Source: Podarcis tiliguerta
Taxonomy: Eukaryota
Strand: one strand, 5' to 3'
NCBI GenBank assembly: GCA_965153285.1
Contig: OZ229116.1
DNA: 64,000 nt
Within the stretch, counting starts at the first letter, position 1, and each line of letters begins with the position of its first letter. The notes below the pieces were generated by a model that was given only the letters and a program-made list of their open reading frames with translations, was not told where the DNA came from and made no database searches. Shown piece after piece: positions 13,101 through 38,449 of the stretch. The translations under genes and the position numbers were made by a program.

Positions 13101-16100
13101 AAACTCAGCCACCCTTGCAGTTACTTCCGGGTTAATGTCAGACAGAAAGAATCTGATATTTTCATTGTGTCGTGATGTTAGATTACCCAAAAAAGGGAAT
13201 AACAAGCCTTATTAGCTCGTTGTGTACTGGACAGTTTACTGAAAAGGATATGTGCTACAGTGTCCGGCACATTCAAATATCATTTGCAATGTCTATCATT
13301 TTTGGGGATGTTTAAATATCTGCCCTTGACAAAAGCTGAGGGGAAAACGTTCAATCGGGTTAACATAAAGTCCCTGCGTTGGGCTGGAATTATTTATTTT
13401 GAGATATAAGTGACCCTGTTACCTGTTGTATTTAAACCATAGAACTTGGGGGAGCAAATTTTATTTACAGCTGACTTGATGTTTTGTTTTTCCACCAAAC
13501 TAATCCGTGTGCCTTATTAAGCTTTTGATTAGGAAGTTTTAAGACAGCATATTGAAGCTAGTTGAGGGGAATTCAGTTGAAGTAGTAGACAGTGGTGGGG
13601 AATCTTTACTGACAGGCAGGCAGGATCCTAACCTCCCCCACCTCGCACATGGGTCTGCTGGAAATTTGTGGTGTTGGTACTGTAAAGTAACTTAAAATGG
13701 TGTGAGGTTGGCGGCTGCTAGTAATCAGAAGTGGAAGGAAACTTGAAAACACACAACACCCACCCACCCCCACACCCCTGACCACTACCTCTCTCTTACC
13801 CATGCTATCTTCTCTTCTTGTAGTGTGATTGAGCAGCTTGGTGGAAAACAGCTTGTAATGAACCACATGCACCACGAAGACCAACAGGTTCGCTATAATG
13901 CCTTGCTTGCTGTGCAGAAGTTGATGGTCCACAACTGGTATGTGACAACTCACTTTCACTTCGGGGTTTTTATATTATTTTATTTAGTAGATTTATATAC
14001 CATCCTTCATCATAAGATCTCAGGGCAGGAGTTCTTTTGGGGAATGTGTGAAACTCAAGTCCTAAATTATGACATGCCTCTTGTGGGTTACAATAAAACT
14101 TTGGTACCCTCTACCACTGAAATGATAACAATTTTAGAATTAACTCAGCAACCGGCAGTAGTGTCATTGTTAAGTGAAATTTAGGGGCTCTTCTGCTGTC
14201 TTTTTTCACTATTCCCCCCCCCCATTTTGTTATTTAATGAAAATTGAAGTAGACTGTATAAAACAGAATATATTATTATTCCTTTTTGTTTCCTGACATT
14301 TAGAATGCCTGATATTTTCAGCCTTTAATTGTGTTTCCATTAGAATTTCTTGCAGCAGGATCCATTTATATGTCTAGCAGACCTTTGGTGAACAGAAATG
14401 CAAGATGCATTTGTATTTTTCTAATAGCTGAACTGAAAGAAATAGATTCTTGTTGCAAAGTTGTTAAAAAGCTTCTGAACTGATTTGTTTTGTTTAACAA
14501 AATGTATGTGCAACTTGCTTGTTAAAAAAATAAATAAAACTTTTTTTAATGGTTTATAAAACATGAAATATATTGATAAAACATGGTTAGATACAGGTAT
14601 CAGTAAGCATTCGAAGGCGATTGAAATGAACAGTAACTAAAAAGAGATAAATCACATGTTTGCAGAAGCGGCTTAGTCATGCTGGCCACATGACCTGGAA
14701 ACTGTACTCCGGCTCCCTCTGCCAATAAAGCGAGATGAGCCCCGCAACCCCAGAGTCGGCCACGACTGGACCTAATGGTCAGGGGTCCCTTTACCTTTTA
14801 CATGTACCTTCTAAATGTCTGGGTAGGGCTGCCTGAGCAAAAATGTTTTAAGCAGGTGCCGAAGAGAGTATAGCCTGCTGGACATCAAAAGACAGAGAGT
14901 TGTAGGTGCTGCCAAATGAAACAATTTATTTCTAAGGATAGTTTTATAAACTTTTCTGCACATATGCAGGTCATTAGGAAACAGATTCTTTAGCCTTGTT
15001 TCTTAATGGCTGGCTGGGGGGACTTTTTCAGCTGTAGCAACTTAGTTGAAACTTTTTGCAAGTAATACAGACACATCAGTAGCACATCCCCTCCATGAAC
15101 TACCTCATTACATTTTGTAAAATTTATATACTAGAGAAAAGGCAGAGACAGCCTGCCTGCCTAGTATATATCGGATCATTACAGGCTATTACCATCATCC
15201 TATTCCTTGGGAATGGAATAAAGAATTTCCTAATGTCATTCTTCAAGATGCATAATCCACTCCTCCTGTTACCTAACCACTGAAATCAACTACTTCTGGC
15301 CTGTGTATACTCTAGAAACTTATACAAAAGAGAAGTTTAGCATGGTCAATCTAACTTTGTAGTGTTGCATCCCTCCTTTTCATTAGTTTCCGTTACCTGT
15401 CATGGCCTTTCAGAAGGCCTGCAAGGCTTTTACCTCTGTACTCTTTCTACTTACCTTTTAAGGCACTGTGAGGTTCAGCAGGATTTTGCACGCAGGTGGC
15501 GCTGTGGGTTAAACCACAGAGCCTAGGACTTGCTGATCAGAAGGTCGGCGGTTCGAATCCCCACGACCGGCTGAGTTCCCGTTGCTCAGTCCCAGCTCCT
15601 GCTAGCCTAGCAGTTCGAAAGCACGTCAAAGTGCAAGTAGATAAATAGGTACCGCTCCGGCGGGAAGGTAAACGGCGTTTGCGTGCGCTGCTCTGGTTTG
15701 CCAGAAGCTGCTTAGTCATGCTGGCCACACGACCCAGAAGCTGTACGCCGGCTCCCTCGGCCAGTAAAGCGAGATGAGTGCTGCAACCCCAGAGTCTGCC
15801 ATGACTGGACCTAATGGTCAGGGGTCCCTTTACCTTTACCTTTAGACATGTATAGGTCTGCACTGTTAATAATATACTTTTGTAGCAATTGATGATTCTA
15901 TAAAAAATACAACCCTCAGAGTGAGGAAAGTACAGCAAATGCATCCAAACTGTTAGGATAATTAGCCCGGTGCTGCCAGTAAATCTTCCCTGATTGATTT
16001 ACTGGCCCCTCAGTCCAGCACGCTTCCGTTGCGTGAACTCTGCTTCACTCCTACAGCAGTAAAACACCTTAGCAGAATAAGCGCAGCATACGTGTGATAA

Positions 16101-19100
16101 AGGCTTAAATCAAGCGAAGGCAGATTCTTTCCTTAAAGTCTTTTATTGCTCCGATAACATTGGCAAAAATCCATCAGAGTTCAGCTGCATCTTCCCAGCT
16201 CCTCTCATCGAGCTGGCAGCTTACACACTGATACTTTCGCTTTCACAGCACACAAAGAACATTCCAGTCTGCTCACGTCATTTCCTGGCAGACGTCCCAG
16301 GAAATCCCTCCCCTTTAGAGCCGAGGCATAGCAGTTTACCTCATTACTGCTCCCAACACCCCCTCTTGCCTCGGATCGGAGGGTAGAATCGACCCTTGGT
16401 CGTCCCAAACCTAAACCTACGCAAAACTCTCCATGTCTCTGGAAGGAGAGTGGCTTCGTTAAGCCATCAGCTAGGTTCTTCGCAGAGGGACAATATTTCA
16501 GTGCTACTAATCCCTCTTGAACGCTTTGACACACATTCCGAAAGCGAATATCTAAATGTTTCGTCCTCGCTTTGAACTGTCCAGACTCTGCCAAACGTAG
16601 GCATGGTTGATTGTCTTCAAACACACGTATTGGTTGACAATCTACCCCACAGATTTCCTGCACTAAGCAAGCATAGAACTCCAGCTCTGTGCATATCTCT
16701 GAAAGAGCACTGAACTCAGCCTCAGTGGATGAGAGCGCTATAAGACTCTGCTTCTTGGATCTCCATCCAACTACTGAGTTTCCAAACTTAACCACTAGAC
16801 CAGACACAGATTTGCGGTCCTTCAAATTAGCCCAATCAGCATCCACATGGCCGACCAGCTTGGCTTCTCCCTGTGCTGGCAACCTAAGACAAAGGTCTTT
16901 TGTTTCCTGCAGATATCTCAGAACTCTCTTGATGCCATTCCAGGCATGCACACTAGGGTTTGATGCTTCCCTGCTGAGCAGATTGACAGCAAAAGCAATA
17001 TCAGGCCTGCTCCACTGGGACAAGTACAACAAACTCCCTAGGGCTGACTGAAACACTTCAGTATTTTCAAACACAGCACTGTCTCCTTGCTGGCTGTCTT
17101 TCACAAAATTAGTCTCCATTGGACTCCTGACTCCTGCACAATCACTCATTCTCATTTTCTGCAGCAATTGCTCAATTTTACCTCTCTGACTGAGCAAGAA
17201 ACTTCCATCTTGTGTGCGTTCAACATTGACACCAAGATAAGTTTTGACAGCACCGAGCTGTTTCAACTTGAAACGTTTCCCTAGGTCTTTGGCAAACTTT
17301 TCAGCCTGTTCATCCGTCTCCGCCAAAAACAAAAGGTCGTCAACGAAAACTAACACCTGTTCCTGTTTCTCACCAGACCCTTTCAGGTAAAGACAACTAT
17401 CAGCAACACTTTTTCTGAAACCTAACTCTTCCAAGGCTTCATTCAGGCACATGTTCCAGTTTCTGGCAGATTGACGCAAACCGTAGATAGATTTGTGCAA
17501 CCTCCACACAACATCCTGCCTCTTGGTCTCAAACCCTGGAGGAGGCTTCATGTACAGCTCCTCCTGGAGATCTGAGTTTAGGTAGGCAACATCCACATCA
17601 AAGTGGTTTACCTTCCAGCCTCTCTGTGCCGCACAAGCTAAAAGCGTTCTCAGAGTCTCTGCACGTGATGTCGGCGAATACACTTCCGTGAAGTGTATTC
17701 CCTTCTTCTGAGAAAATCCACGTGCAACTAATCTCGCTCTATACTGCGGCTGTCCAGTCTCTGTGGGTTTCAAACGGTAAACCCACCTGCAACCTACTGC
17801 CTGTTTGCCTGGTGGCAGTTCAGTGAGTGAAAACACACCTAGATCCTTCATGGACTTCAACTCTTTGTCCATTGCCTTGTGCCACTCAGCTGCTTCTTCT
17901 TCAGGCAAACTCTGAATATCCTCAAAGGACTCAGGTTCACATCTAGCTGAACCTACCCAGACACCTGAAGCCTCATACCGATCAGGAGGTCTCCTTGTCC
18001 TCGCTGATCTCCTCAGTGTGACTCTTGGTGACACTGCTTCTTCTTCTTCAACCTCAGCATCTTCCCCCTCTGACCTGCTGCGCCTTTTGGGCCTCACAGC
18101 TGGCTCAACGGGTGAAGAAGGCTCACTCTTTGGTTCAATCTTGACTCTTGTCAGAGGAGGTGTTCTAGGTTCCCCCCTCTGAGGGAGTCTAAGTTGTCCC
18201 TGTCTTGGACTTTGTTGCTCTGGACCTTGGTCCCTTGCAACCACTTCATCATCCTCCTCTTCAGCGTCTGAGTCATAGGACTGTTGTATAACCACCTCTG
18301 GGTTTGCGTGCAGACGCTCCCAGCCTGCTTGCTCACAAAACTCTGCACTATTACTCACAACCAGTCTTGACTGATCACCACTGGGGTACGCAAACCTCCA
18401 GGCCTTTGAGCCAGGTTCATACCCTACAAAGATCATTTTCTTTGCTCTTGGCTCGCCTTTTCTGCGTAGAGCCTTTGGAATAAGCACCCAGGCTTCACAA
18501 CCAAACACACGGAAGTAATTAACCTTGGGCTTTTTTCCACGCAGTAAGAAATACGGTGTATTTCCCACACTAGAGTTGTACACTCTGTTCTGTGTATGTA
18601 CCACATACTTCCAAGCTTCAGACCAGAACTTTTGGGGTAGCCCAGAATCCCACAGGATCGCAGAAACTGCCTCTTGCACTGTCCTGTTTTTCCTCTCTGC
18701 CACACCATTCTGTTGCGGAGAGTAAGGAGCAGTGAGTCTGTGGCTAATCCCCTGTTCCCTGAAAAAGTCTTGCAGAGCGCATCCAGTGAATTCCGAACCT
18801 CGGTCACTCTGAAAAGCCTTAACTTTGGCGGAATATGTCACTTCTACAGCTGTGATCCAATCCCTAATCATTTTTGCTGCCTCAGCTTTGGTTCTCAAAG
18901 CAAAGGTCCAAGAATTTCTCGAAAAATCATCAACCAGAATCAAAGAGTACCTTGACTTCCCCAAAGACTCCACCGCCATTGGCCCACACAAATCTGCATG
19001 AATCAACTCAAAAGGTTGTGTGGTACGTCTCTCTGATTTCGGATAGGAGCAAGTTACAATCTTAGATTGCTTACATGCATTGCAATCTAAAAACTTGTCA

Positions 19101-22100
19101 CAACTCTTAAAGTCACACCCTTCAGTTAAACTTGGGGCTTTTCTAAGAAATGCCCACCCCAAATGAGCAAAGCGTCTATGCCAAATATGAGCACAACCAT
19201 TGTGGGGCGCTACATTCACACATTGCCCCTTGGCGTCCTCTGCGTCTTCTTCTCCTGTGGACAAAGACAGGTTAACAGTAAACAAATTGTCTTTGGCATG
19301 CACTGTATAGACATGGTTGCCATCCTTGTAGAATTCGCACTTGTCACCTGCAAAAGAAACTTGAAAGCCCTCTGTTAGCAAATCATGTACACTTAACAGA
19401 CAATTGGTCAAACCAGGCACTGCAAAAGCCTTAACTTCATGCTTAAGAAAAGGACAGTAAAACAATCCAGTCGCAGTCAATTGCTTTCGACTCCCGTCCG
19501 CAACGACACAGAACTTGTCAGTCTCTACCCTCTTGCGATCCCGCAAGAGATTAGGCGACGGTACGAGAGTGTGGGTGGCTCCTGAGTCGATTATTATCTC
19601 TAGAGGATTGTTGTGTTCACACTTCTGCGTCGCCATAGCAACAACCCCCCTCTCACTGCCCACTTGGCTGGGGCCTGTGTTGGCTTTCTTCACTGTAGCC
19701 TTTGTTGCAACTCTCTCAGTTGCCATGGAGACTAGACTTCTCTCACGCAAGTCCTCACTCCTTATCTGTACTTTCGCCAGATGGTTGACCTTGAAGGCTT
19801 CCACTGTAGACGGCTTCCCACGGGAAGATTTCTCAACTCCTTCACGTAAACAGCTTATAGTAGTAGCCTTTGGAGGAAGAGGCTTCTCTGCGCTTTTGCT
19901 TTCCTCTGCCCCCCCACTCTCAGCACTCCTGGGGCTCCCAGGTCGATAACCTGCACCCCCTCTGGTGGGTCTGGTGGGTCTGGGGTTCTCCAAGCTTGGC
20001 CCCTCTCCAGGCCTCTCAGACAGACTCATCTCAGCATCAAAGCAGCTCTCTGCAGCAACCACAGCAGCTTTACTGCCCCCCTCTCTTGGGAGCTTCTCCC
20101 AGCTGCTCTCAGCTGGGCTCTCAGCGCCATCTTGGCTCTCTGCCCCTTCTGGCATCGCAGCGGCCACGTCTCGGCTTAGGCCTCCCACTCCTGCTTCACA
20201 AGCTTCTTGGAGTGCTCGCCACGCTGCACTAGGCCTTCTAGCCTCTTGTACCAGGGGTAACAGGTGTACGTCCACGTTTTCTGCTAGAAACGCTAGCACA
20301 CGCTGCTCTTCTTCTTTCTGCACCTCTGTGCTCTCTGCTGCCTTCTGGGGTTTCTGGACAACACCCCACAAACCTGCCCCCACTAGGGAAAGCTCCACAT
20401 GAAAGCTCCACGCCAGCCACGTGCTGGGGGTAAGCTTCTCACATGCTAAAGGCTCACAGCCAAAACTGTGTTTCAGAGCCATCTTCCGCCCTTCTCAGCC
20501 CCTTTCTACTCACTCAGTCTCTCAAAGGGGATATTAAAGTTTTCTGAAGCTGCCTGAGCCATGGCCCTTCCCTTCTGTCGGCTTATACTCACTCAGCCAA
20601 AACCGGGAGTCTGTGGGGCTGTTGGCTCCTTGCGTCTGAGTCTCTCCGCAGTGCCTTTGAAGATCTGACACGCGATCTCAGCCCTCCGCAGCTTCAAAGC
20701 CTTTTTCCACACGTGCTGAAGTCCATAACCTTGTTAGGATAATTAGCCCGGTGCTGCCAGTAAATCTTCCCTGATTGATTTACTGGCCCCTCAGTCCAGC
20801 ACGCTTCCGTTGCGTGAACTCTGCTTCACTCCTACAGCAGTAAAACACCTTAGCAGAATAAGCGCAGCATACGTGTGATAAAGGCTTAAATCAAGCGAAG
20901 GCAGATTCTTTCCTTAAAGTCTTTTATTGCTCCGATAACATTGGCAAAAATCCATCAGAGTTCAGCTGCATCTTCCCAGCTCCTCTCATCGAGCTGGCAG
21001 CTTACACACTGATACTTTCGCTTTCACAGCACACAAAGAACATTCCAGTCTGCTCACGTCATTTCCTGGCAGACGTCCCAGGAAATCCCTCCCCTTTAGA
21101 GCCGAGGCATAGCAGTTTACCTCATTACTGCTCCCAACACAAACCTCGTACAGTTATGTAATTTATCTGTGATACTCTTAATAAATGAACTGATAAAATG
21201 CAAAATTGACTATATATTTAACTGGTTTTGAAAAGTCATGTAATTTAGGTACTATTGCTTTTAAATAGGATTCTGAAGCAATATGACATTGATGATGAAG
21301 CTGTTTCTAAATTAACAAGCATGTGAATGTCTTCTATGCAGCTCATAATTAGCTCTGCAGCCATGTGAAGCCTCATAAAATATTTTTATGTTTGAAATGA
21401 ATATTCTGTATCTTCCCCTGTGAATTTCTCAATACATCCCTGTATTTCCCCTGCTGAAAAATACATCTTGTACTTCACTCTTTCTGGGGTTTCATTTTGG
21501 GATACTGCTCTACACCCCTTGTTTAATTAATGTTTGTTTTTCAGTCTCAGTATCCCAGAATTTCATACAGGGGAACTGAAATGGCATTTGTTTGCCAATG
21601 ACAGTAATTTATTTTCAGATTTCTATATTGAAGGAAATGGTACTTTAGACTGTGTCTCAAGCAAAGTTTAATTAAGGTTCAGTCAGTCACAATTTATTTC
21701 AGGTTCTTAAAATTATGTTGCTATGTGTAAAACTGCACAAATTTGTTTTCTGTTCAGCTTGGTAAATGTGTCTTGATTCATGTAGATTCATATTGGATTA
21801 CTGAAGCAAATAAAGCATCAAGTCAAATGTAAATTAGTGAGGAGATAGGTTTAATTTACAAGACATCTTTAATCTAACATTGCAATATAAGTGAGGACCT
21901 TAACAGCACTTTACAAATAAAAACCTAGACATGATTGAGCCAAAGTCAAAACCAGCCAAATTTTGTTGTATGCTGATATAAATGGAAGAGAGTGTTAAGA
22001 ATGTGTTTTTACACTTTAAATCAATGGGACATTCCTAACTTTCTCCCCCATTTATACCTTTGAAAGTTTTGCCCCTCTCTTAATTGGACTGGGGAAATGT

Positions 22101-35945: not shown

Positions 35946-36841
35946 ATATATCACTCAGGTGTGCTAATGATTAAGGAATATACATATGCATGCATGCATG
36001 AATGGATTCATGTGGTTTTATAGAAGCTGAAGCCATGTCAATGGGCTGTTTTGTCATCAGAAAGTTTCAGGAGGCTCCTGATTCCATAAACTAACACAGT
36101 TTTCATTCTGTAGGGCATGTCTCCTCTGCCTGAAGCAGCCTTCAGCTTTTCCCTGACATCTCACCACCCCTCTGTAGAATGCTCCATATTAATTCCCCCC
36201 CCCCAAGCATGTCAATGAATCTTAGAAAATGGTATTTGAAGCAGAATTGAAAATTGCTTTAAACTGATTAATATCCTTGCCTGGTACTTCATCTGTAGTT
36301 TGAATAAACTGATAGAGCTTATAGTTTGTGCCTCTTAGCTTGCTATTTCTTAGTTGCACAGCATCATGTCTTTTCTTAATTTGTCATGCAGAATGACAGA
36401 CATTTTCATTTGGGGGTACCTTAATGAGAGGAAGATTAACACCTAAAACCAAGCAAAAAAAAAACAAGCACACCTGCAAATCAACATTTCATTCCACAAC
36501 CTTATTAAGATAGAATATTAGGATGCAAGGGCTATGCTTCAGCTTTATTGACTTTAGTAAGTCCCAAATGGGGTCTTTTCCAAATGGCTGAGCTCAACTG
36601 GGTTGCAGATTCATATCGGAAATAACAGCAAACAAGCATATGTCTAATTAATTAAAATGAAGCAATATGCAAGGAGAATGTGTTTAAATGGCAATTATTC
36701 ATGCTGACTTGATCCAAATAGTTAAAAAACAAGTCCTTGAAAGGTTTGCAAACAATTAGTGATAAAAATATTTAAAAAACCAAGACTAATAAACAATAAA
36801 CTGAATAGGGAGATTTCAAGGTACAAAGTTTGCTTTGCGGG

Positions 36842-37592
36842 TGTCAGGGGTTCAGGAGCAGAGGCACAGGATAAGGAGGAAATGGAGAGTGAAGGGGAGG
36901 AGTCCGAAGGAAATGTCAGCGATGACAGCGATCCGAGGTCTTTGAGTCTTTCCAGTGAATCGGACGATTCACAGAAAGGAGCTCCCATGGTCAGGGCAAG
37001 GGGAGTGCCCAGGGGAACACCTCGGGAAGAAGGGGGCAGAGGGGACTCAGAGAGTAGCAGTTGGAAATCCGGGCCCACGTCCCCCCCAGAGTGCAGTAGG
37101 GGGGAGGAGTCCCAGGCATCGGGATCAGGTGGCGCGCTGCCAGCGGGAGAACATGAGGCAGGATTGACCACACCTCCGTCGGGGAGTGAGGAAACGGTCA
37201 TCAGGAAAGTTAAACGCGCGCGCGCGCCAAGTTCAAATGTACAGGAGGGAGGCACAGTTGGCAGCCCGGGAAGAGAGCCAGGTCCTAAAGCCCGCCGAAG
37301 AGAGCGGGAGGAGTCAGGGGGGTCATCGTCAGCCTCAGAAGAATCCAGGGAGACAGGGGCCCCGGAGGGCAGCAGGACCCAGAGGAGAAAGAAGAGGTGG
37401 AGTAAAGCTAGAGTCTTAAACTGGTGTACAGGGGGCGGAGACTCAGATGGAGCTTCGCCGGTCTAAAGCCTAGACGTAGAGCTGGAGCGCTGCGGAGTGG
37501 AAATGGAAACTGTACTTCAATAAAGACTTTTGTACATAAATACCAGCCAGCGTTGGTCCTCTGTGAGCTGGGACCAGGAGCCAGCCCTGACA
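36842..37592 (+). mobile_element. Young solo LTR (751 bp; probably Gypsy-type) containing a long open reading frame
   Basis: TGTCAGGG...CCCTGACA inverted termini; 5-bp TSD GCGGG/GTGGG (one CpG transition); AATAAA at 37519-37524; CpG-rich against a CpG-poor background. Confidence 0.8.
36882..37466 (+). CDS. Hypothetical 194-aa LTR-encoded protein (acidic N-terminus, SP-rich middle, basic RRKKR C-terminus)
   Basis: Internal ATG of ORF 36759..37466; frame is open from the first LTR codon; no known domain recognised. Confidence 0.35.
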   Translation: MESEGEESEGNVSDDSDPRSLSLSSESDDSQKGAPMVRARGVPRGTPREEGGRGDSESSSWKSGPTSPPECSRGEESQASGSGGALPAGEHEAGLTTPPSGSEETVIRKVKRARAPSSNVQEGGTVGSPGREPGPKARRREREESGGSSSASEESRETGAPEGSRTQRRKKRWSKARVLNWCTGGGDSDGASPV

Positions 37593-38449
37593 GTGGGTTT
37601 TTATTATCTATGTAAAAACCTCACTGAAGAAATTGCAGATCTTCAACACCACCCGAAGACTGAGAAAATGGCTGAGTGTGGAAAGATGCTTTGGGATCAG
37701 TCAGCATCACACAGATTATTTCAGTCCAAGACTCCCAAGGTTGTTAACAATGTAAAGCAAGACCATATACAGGATGCTAACAACAAAAACAATAGAATAA
37801 AAGCTTTACAAAATATAGCAGAGACCTAAAAGAACAGAAAGGGAAGAGCTAATTGGATGACCAAACAAACAAACAAAAAAGGATTCATGAGCCCATTCAA
37901 TTGTCCAGGGCTGGCTCTGTTGGGAATCTGAGGTGACATACCCACATAGTGGACGTTGTCCCCAGTTCCAGTCACAACACAGAGGCAGCTTCAGTCCAAA
38001 ATAGCTTACTGCAGCAGAAGATAAGGCTTCAGTAATACAGTTTCAGATGCTGATATATACATACAGCTTGTAGGCTTTGCAGATATAGGCATCCAGTTAT
38101 AAAACATTTATGTTGCTCCAGCAGTTCAAGATGTAACACAGACTCCAACTCATGGACAGCACACACTGACTGACTAATGAGCTGACATTGGGAGTGCCAG
38201 CTTGGCCCCACAACCGTAGGTGCCATGCAGCATGCATAGCCCTGGCTCTGAAATTTGTGGGTGCCTGGCCCCTTTATGGAGAATTTTGTGGGTGCTCAGG
38301 CACCCAGGGTCCGAGGGGATTGGCACCTATGACTGACATGCCTTAATCACTTATATAGACAACACTGGGCCATTGCCACAGCAACTTGCTTTGCTGACCT
38401 TGCACCTGTTGACAGAGGTGGAGCTGGCTGCTCCGGCACCTGGAGTGAT

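Follow-up and report, generated by a model that had tools for sequence, protein, structure and literature searches.

The open reading frame that fills a solo LTR of Podarcis tiliguerta is the selected end of a Ty3/Gypsy pol gene and likely encodes a disordered integrase tail

We analyzed a window of 64,000 nucleotides (the whole stretch of DNA studied) from contig OZ229116.1 of Podarcis tiliguerta. The locus under study is a solo long terminal repeat (LTR) of a retrotransposon family designated family I, flanked by a target-site duplication (TSD). Its features are as follows.

36837..36841, plus strand: left TSD, GCGGG, recognized by flank comparison and by a 756-nt skip in contigs of DNA runs
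36842..37592, plus strand: solo LTR of Ty3/Gypsy Tf1/sushi type, 751 bp, family I, identified from genome matches at 99-100% and from the LTR pairs of parent elements
36843..37466, plus strand: open reading frame (ORF), the final 207 pol codons and the stop (likely an LTR-encoded integrase C-terminal tail), assigned from the pol frame of the parent and a dN/dS of 0.36
36842..37462, minus strand: shadow open frame having its third codon positions in common with the pol frame, recognized by shared stops and not counted as a gene
36873..36974, plus strand: acidic, Ser-rich tail segment, seen in the sequence; dN/dS of 0.23 for codons 1-50
37215..37227, plus strand: (CG)n tract, at which slips that break the frame cluster in some copies
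37374..37424, plus strand: basic cluster followed by hydrophobic-L-x-W, a candidate nuclear-localization and docking motif; similar ends occur in family II (see below), P0010, P0017 and P0018, and the arginines survive synonymous change
37415..37420, plus strand: TATA-like CTTAAA, 30 nt 5' of the predicted start, lost in one active subfamily
37445..37455, plus strand: 11-nt self-primer within the last seven codons, with the predicted transcription start at 37445 (U3/R border), based on complementarity with the PBS (primer-binding site) and on covariation
37519..37524, plus strand: AATAAA polyadenylation signal, 52 nt past the stop
37593..37597, plus strand: right TSD, GTGGG, with a single C>T at a CpG relative to the left copy

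The LTR termini are 8-bp inverted ends, TGTCAGGG..CCCTGACA. A plus-strand frame without stops begins at LTR base 2 (36843) and extends for 207 codons to a TAA at 37464-37466, occupying 83% of the LTR. The first-pass annotation had described a TG..CA element with a 5-bp TSD, open from the first LTR codon to this stop and followed by AATAAA; its coordinates were reproduced, and the two copies of the duplication differ at one base. The polarized peptide that it reported, with an acidic N-terminus, an SP/TP-rich middle and a basic C-terminus (KVKRAR, RRRERE, RTQRRKKRW), was found as claimed. Its remark that other frames are also long held for one of them, the minus-strand frame open for 207 codons, but not for the rest. 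The comparison with shuffled LTRs that it proposed gave a divided answer: 3000 mononucleotide and 3000 dinucleotide shuffles yielded at least 207 open codons in one of the six frames in 4.5% and 2.8% of cases, respectively, with the minus strand contributing most, whereas any plus frame was open in 0.2% and the pol frame was open from its first codon in 0 of 5000. A chance ORF was rejected on the last result.

In contigs from three DNA runs of two samples, position 36838 is joined to 37595, the shorter side of the joins measuring only 26-30 nt; the 756 nt that are absent correspond to the LTR and one TSD. An empty allele likely exists, so that the insertion is likely polymorphic and recent, and host co-option of the window copy was rejected on this ground. 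Contigs of runs X17-X19 join window position 37592 to 36842 with 1-4 bases between, as in tandem LTRs elsewhere or circle junctions.

In genome searches with the solo LTR, all 40 matches that were scored, out of 3451 candidates, were full-length at 99-100%. Family I is a young, high-copy Ty3/Gypsy family. Its LTR pairs lie 5.8 kb apart and flank gag and pol, and the Pfam domains occur in the order Ty3_capsid, zf-CCHC, RVP_2, RVT_1, RT_RNaseH, Integrase_H2C2 and rve, the PR-RT-RNaseH-IN arrangement of Ty3/Gypsy elements. pol lies in the -1 frame relative to gag, and the integrase is followed by an SH3 domain of Tf2-like type and by a chromodomain that is weak; env was absent in a domain survey between the LTRs of full-length elements. 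Beyond the chromodomain, pol consists of about 140 acidic codons, the polypurine tract, and then the 3' LTR as far as the stop equivalent to 37466. Among named proteins, the closest belong to Podarcis muralis and P. lilfordi. P. muralis Pol P0004 has the same tail and end at 69% identity, and the automatic annotation of that species already places the tail within Pol. The P. lilfordi 'hypothetical proteins' P0013 and P0014 consist of the family I LTR frame and are likely gene-prediction calls on LTRs.

Of 47 full-length family I copies, 32 had an unbroken pol between the protease and the stop in the LTR; 24 of the 47 came from protein searches reporting open frames. The other 23 had been chosen solely by DNA search, and pol was open in 14 of them (1/8, 9/10 and 4/5 in three subfamilies). 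Eighty-seven of 90 distinct 3' junctions are in frame, and the remaining three slip in a G run; the frame thus continues from pol, a point that the first-pass annotation had proposed to check. The LTR ORF was of full length in 38 of 40 DNA-picked insertions and in 101 of 115 independent insertions overall. Its codon 14 is M in 48, T in 31 and I in 24 copies, its codon 49 is M in 97 of 103 family I copies and V or L in relatives, and no conserved ATG was found within it when family I copies and relatives were compared. The LTR ORF is a continuation of pol, most probably unspliced and neither a gene of its own nor an exon. The 3' LTR of the parent had been proposed to act as a terminal coding exon for a nuclear accessory protein; it is coding, selected and terminal, but an accessory gene or spliced exon is highly improbable, since pol runs on into the LTR in frame. 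Contigs of four presumed-RNA runs from other lizards covered family I at 80-95% identity and were uninformative on starts, strand and splicing. A 2-kb deleted derivative (L040:2897-4924), nested with another LTR in a full-length copy, consists of an LTR, the end of pol from within the chromodomain, and an LTR.

The sequence following the 5' LTR (PBS) is, in 40 of 46 full-length family I copies, the exact complement of 11 nt that lie 148 nt from the end of the LTR, and four versions of this pair covary on both sides. The PBS of Tf1/sushi elements likewise pairs with the 5' end of their own RNA, as described in the available text of PMC4600332 and PMC6317226. From the position of the self-primer we predict that transcription starts at 37445, seven codons 5' of the stop, which would place about 200 codons in U3 and confine them, within the RNA, to the 3' end of the full-length transcript; given this start, nearly all of U3 is coding. 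The promoter of the solo copy would therefore start transcription 3' of about 200 of the 207 codons, and no ATG is present in the upstream flank frame at the locus. Thus, the window copy likely cannot express the tail and would be a silent passenger. Among near-identical copies (L031-L038, L071-L080, L141-L152 and L165-L169), 2-3 bases 3' of the PBS vary, and the 11-nt match is mostly followed by a C that mismatches the LTR; a copied RNA cap and bases added without a template may account for this.

Selection tests were performed with real copies only. Two family I subfamilies that are 84% identical differ by 12-nt and 9-nt indels and keep the stop; substitutions between them number 19/21/38 by codon position, and read in the pol frame they give a pairwise dN/dS of 0.33, as against 1.2-1.5 for the other plus frames. 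A maximum-likelihood codon model with 13 family I copies, which were drawn from the 32 open ones to span subfamilies and are thus selected for open pol and partly recombinant, gave a dN/dS of 0.36 for the LTR part (2dL 64 against 1), 0.39 for the pre-LTR tail, 0.23 for the chromodomain and gag, and 0.07-0.18 for the enzymes (RT 0.07). When the att end (first 8 codons) and the promoter/primer end (last 25) were trimmed off, the LTR part gave 0.33. Constraint on the DNA alone was rejected, because all LTR sub-regions lie below 0.5 and change is in excess at third positions (variable columns 36/35/83 by codon position), and a CpG artefact was rejected because the bias persists at non-CpG transitions (normalized N/S 0.38) and transversions (0.27). 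The pol tail in the LTR evolves under purifying selection on the protein. These values, together with the retention of the ORF in most insertions, agree with the protein-level constraint, and the dN/dS below one, that the first-pass annotation had put forward for checking. Judging from selection, it is very probable that a selected Pol tail is translated.

Changes unique to one copy (9 S:14 N; 4 S:9 N in DNA-picked LTR pairs) are small in number and as expected for neutral decay. Pooled differences between 5' and 3' LTRs are synonymous-rich (29 S:19 N), and unique ones number 13 S:16 N in the full, partly protein-picked set. We attribute this synonymous excess to protein-guided picking and mosaicism; it weakens the neutral control, and the 5'/3' comparison is usable as such only once alleles present in other copies are set aside. 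Indels in multiples of three had also been anticipated. The four that occur in at least 12 insertions (-12, -9, +3 and +9 nt) are all in frame, but three of the ten that occur in at least two insertions break the frame, two of them within the (CG)n tract; seven in-frame indels of ten corresponds to about 0.02 when calculated by hand. The 5' UTR lengths, 104-111, change by single bases. One full-length copy has an identical 4-nt loss in both LTRs that is common to other insertions. This copy, in which the last 80 residues are altered, was probably mobilized, in cis or in trans, so that the need for these residues in cis is not absolute.

Ten matches came from a profile search against 1.84 billion representatives. 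P0017 and P0018 contain a chromodomain, a linker of acidic character and a junction rich in G, followed by a tail that turns from acidic to basic and closes with a basic run and hydrophobic-L-x-W; a further search found no longer relatives of P0018, which is weak evidence. P0017 was used to find a second family, family II, in the P. tiliguerta genome (L329-L342). Its Pol is 51% identical to that of family I (RT 71%), and the LTRs of the two share no useful nucleotide match. The family II LTRs are 408-438 bp long, pol ends inside the 3' LTR, 75% of which is coding, and the self-primer lies within the last codons in 12 of 13 copies. The tail end is basic and LxW-ending, similar to that of family I, and in both families the stop codon lies near the predicted R start, within a few codons. 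The same layout in two families this divergent indicates that the layout is old. For the LTR part of family II, dN/dS was 0.28 in 9 young copies and 0.33 in 31 copies. The basic stretch gave 0.07 in the nine young copies, with arginines kept across CGN/AGR switches. Part of the conservation of the LxW motif may be at the DNA level, as this motif overlaps the -30 region. The 70 LTR codons before the basic stretch gave 0.61 in the young set (2dL 1.7, not distinguishable from neutral) and a significant 0.37 in the full set.

We consider it likely that the LTR ORF is a selected pol end running into the 3' LTR and that it forms a disordered integrase tail, predicted for nuclear import and chromatin tethering. 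Pol would arise through -1 frameshifting out of gag. The transcript would start at 37445, prime itself and end past AATAAA in the 3' LTR; with the pol stop about 50 nt 5' of the poly(A) signal, reverse transcription would copy the coding U3 into both LTRs, and LTR-LTR recombination would have left the solo copy in the window. The tail would be translated as the end of integrase, disordered and acidic, then basic. Its basic end may import the integration complex, and a short motif may bind a host chromatin factor, by analogy with the integrase C-termini of Ty1 and Ty5. The basic end is the best candidate for a nuclear localization signal because it is conserved between the families. On this analogy, we give a role of the tail in import or tethering roughly even chances. 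The Ty1 and Ty5 C-termini carry nuclear localization signals and short targeting motifs for AC40 or Sir4, and they resemble the family I tail as poorly conserved integrase ends with basic clusters and acidic residues (available text of PMC7459421); however, these are Copia-type yeast elements and non-homologous.

Other explanations were weighed against this reading. The tail could be made within Pol and then cut off by the element protease, giving a small separate nuclear protein that is in effect accessory. The approximately 350 residues past the chromodomain are of low complexity and predicted to be disordered, and the tail evolves faster than the enzymes; no cleavage site is identifiable from the sequence, however, and the LTR-encoded part of plant CRM elements is described as the integrase C-terminus in the available text of PMC3059260. 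We regard this release as unlikely. An independent gene of the sag/nef kind, expressed from spliced RNA or an upstream U3 promoter, solo LTRs included, could use an ATG found just 5' of the LTR in 86 of 90 family I junctions, or the methionine prevailing at codon 49. The former ATG, however, is part of the polypurine tract; family II has V in its place and solo LTRs lack it, and codon 49 is not methionine in relatives. The predicted transcription start is 3' of the bulk of the ORF, the flank frame at the solo locus has no ATG and the insertion there is polymorphic, which makes such a gene highly improbable.

Another possibility is that the frame stays open chiefly so that the stop lies near the poly(A) site, for the sake of RNA stability, and that the amino acids themselves matter little; only a few codons separate the stop from the predicted R start in both families, and the length and sequence of the tail vary widely between them. 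Avoidance of stops alone does not yield a dN/dS of 0.3 or arginines kept via CGN/AGR switches, and gag already ends 4.5 kb upstream; this is a clearly improbable account. A selected protein on the minus strand, with the plus frame as its shadow, would fit the minus frame being open in 88 of 101 insertions and a dN/dS of 0.45 in one pairwise test, and an underpowered four-fold-site test did not separate the plus and minus frames. However, pol continues only in the plus frame, and minus-frame stops are shared in 13 of 101 insertions, with one codon carrying a stop in 9 insertions and another in 3; 24 of 31 family II copies also have stops in this frame. The minus frame is therefore a shadow, and an antisense gene is scarcely credible. 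The reading as a pol-encoded integrase tail was thus retained.

LTRs are annotated as non-coding by default. Protein-coding sequence in U3 is known from MMTV sag and lentiviral nef, each of them a separate gene, with its own start, in an enveloped retrovirus. Family I likewise has a protein-coding U3, but its frame is continuous with pol, a conserved start separate from pol was not found, and the element is without env. The closest known layout is that of plant CRM group A, in which the polyprotein enters the 3' LTR, where the CR motif is encoded, an integrase C-terminus regarded as a targeting domain (available text of PMC3059260 and PMC3605345). The family I polyprotein also extends into the 3' LTR. 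CRM elements are, however, a plant clade primed by tRNA-Met, in which the CR motif replaces the chromodomain, whereas family I is a vertebrate, self-priming family with a PBS complementary to its own LTR, a decayed chromodomain before the tail and nearly all of U3 coding. The family I tail had no Pfam match. By its self-priming, its vertebrate host and its chromodomain remnant, family I is not a CRM member despite its CRM-like layout; a polyprotein ending in the 3' LTR is known from CRM group A, and the layout in a vertebrate self-priming element is a variant of it.

Family I is most likely a V-clade Tf1/sushi chromovirus. It shares with Sushi-ichi, Amn-ichi of Anolis, Amn-ni and Amn-san the Ty3-type gag, PR-RT-RH-IN, Tf2-like SH3, chromodomain position, self-priming and LTR ends (available text of PMC6317226, PMC3601003, PMC4600332 and PMC2774666). 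Its LTR ends, TGTCAGG..CCTGACA, fit the Sushi motifs TGTYANR..CNTNACA (PMC3601003, Table 3). The U3 of fish Sushi is described as T-rich in the available text of PMC3601003, whereas that of family I is 14% T and coding. For vertebrate chromoviruses, no account of a coding U3 turned up in a literature search carried out largely without subscription papers, the Amn-ichi/Tf1-sushi texts, supplements, Repbase, Dfam and GyDB.

The two families differ in their chromodomains. That of family I scored 13-14.5 bits against Pfam (cut-off 25.1) and, aligned to family II, misses three aromatics of the cage, whose positions we take to be those of HP1. The family II chromodomain passes the cut-off (34.6-40.5 bits) and keeps the central W. 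In AlphaFold models of family II, the SH3 domain and chromodomain fold well, matching Ty3 integrase and HP1/CBX domains; the model of the family I chromodomain and tail was low throughout (pLDDT 37) and uninformative on the chromodomain fold. The tail was predicted to be disordered in the models of both families.

The chromosomal distribution was compared by counting loci within 0.5 Mb of a contig end, in top-scoring copy subsets that omit contig C24 and unplaced contigs and in which terminal clusters may include later duplicates. On 19 main contigs, 32 of 136 family I loci were terminal (1.3% expected), as against 1 of 28 for a young copia control family from the window (p 0.018). Ten of 28 pol-bearing copies of one family I subfamily were terminal versus 1 of 33 young family II copies (p 0.0016), and one family I subfamily was hardly end-enriched (2/21). 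The control comes from a full-length, very young Ty1/copia element at 15951-21031 on the minus strand, with identical 300-bp LTRs and a 1429-codon frame. Family I is enriched at telomere-repeat ends and at ends bearing a satellite of ~250/500-bp period, and most copies are dispersed; among 115 insertions, 9 lie in this satellite and 11 in their own family. We treat the terminal bias as a lead, for which targeting and retention are alike possible, and the chromodomain or linker is as possible a cause as the LTR part. Family II is dispersed though its tail end resembles that of family I, so the shared motif alone does not set the bias. The extra tail length and lost cage of family I could explain it.

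A wider reading, which we hold only tentatively and think doubtful, is that a vertebrate self-priming chromovirus lineage turned its whole U3 into coding sequence for an integrase tail, and that the longer tail of family I replaced the cage-less chromodomain, steering integration to centromeric satellite and subtelomeric chromatin. Family I would then be a vertebrate counterpart of plant centromeric retrotransposons, independently reached, with the dispersed sister family as a natural control.

The window copy itself is ordinary. In two families, at least three quarters of the LTR is selected coding sequence that doubles as promoter and self-primer. The tail is a short, testable candidate for nuclear entry and site choice of a vertebrate retrotransposon, in an active family pair with differing chromodomains and differing chromosomal distributions. 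Open 200-codon frames occur in thousands of solo LTRs, where gene predictors can call them as host genes.

Several observations concern the assembly. The ~250/500-bp satellite, a candidate centromeric repeat, lies at non-telomeric ends of several chromosome-scale contigs (L234, L235, L237, L240, L243, L246 and L251), and four other contig ends break within family I elements. Copies of family I, family II and copia abound on contig C24 (G000), which has amplified arrays near 4.3-5.3 Mb and looks like a W chromosome.
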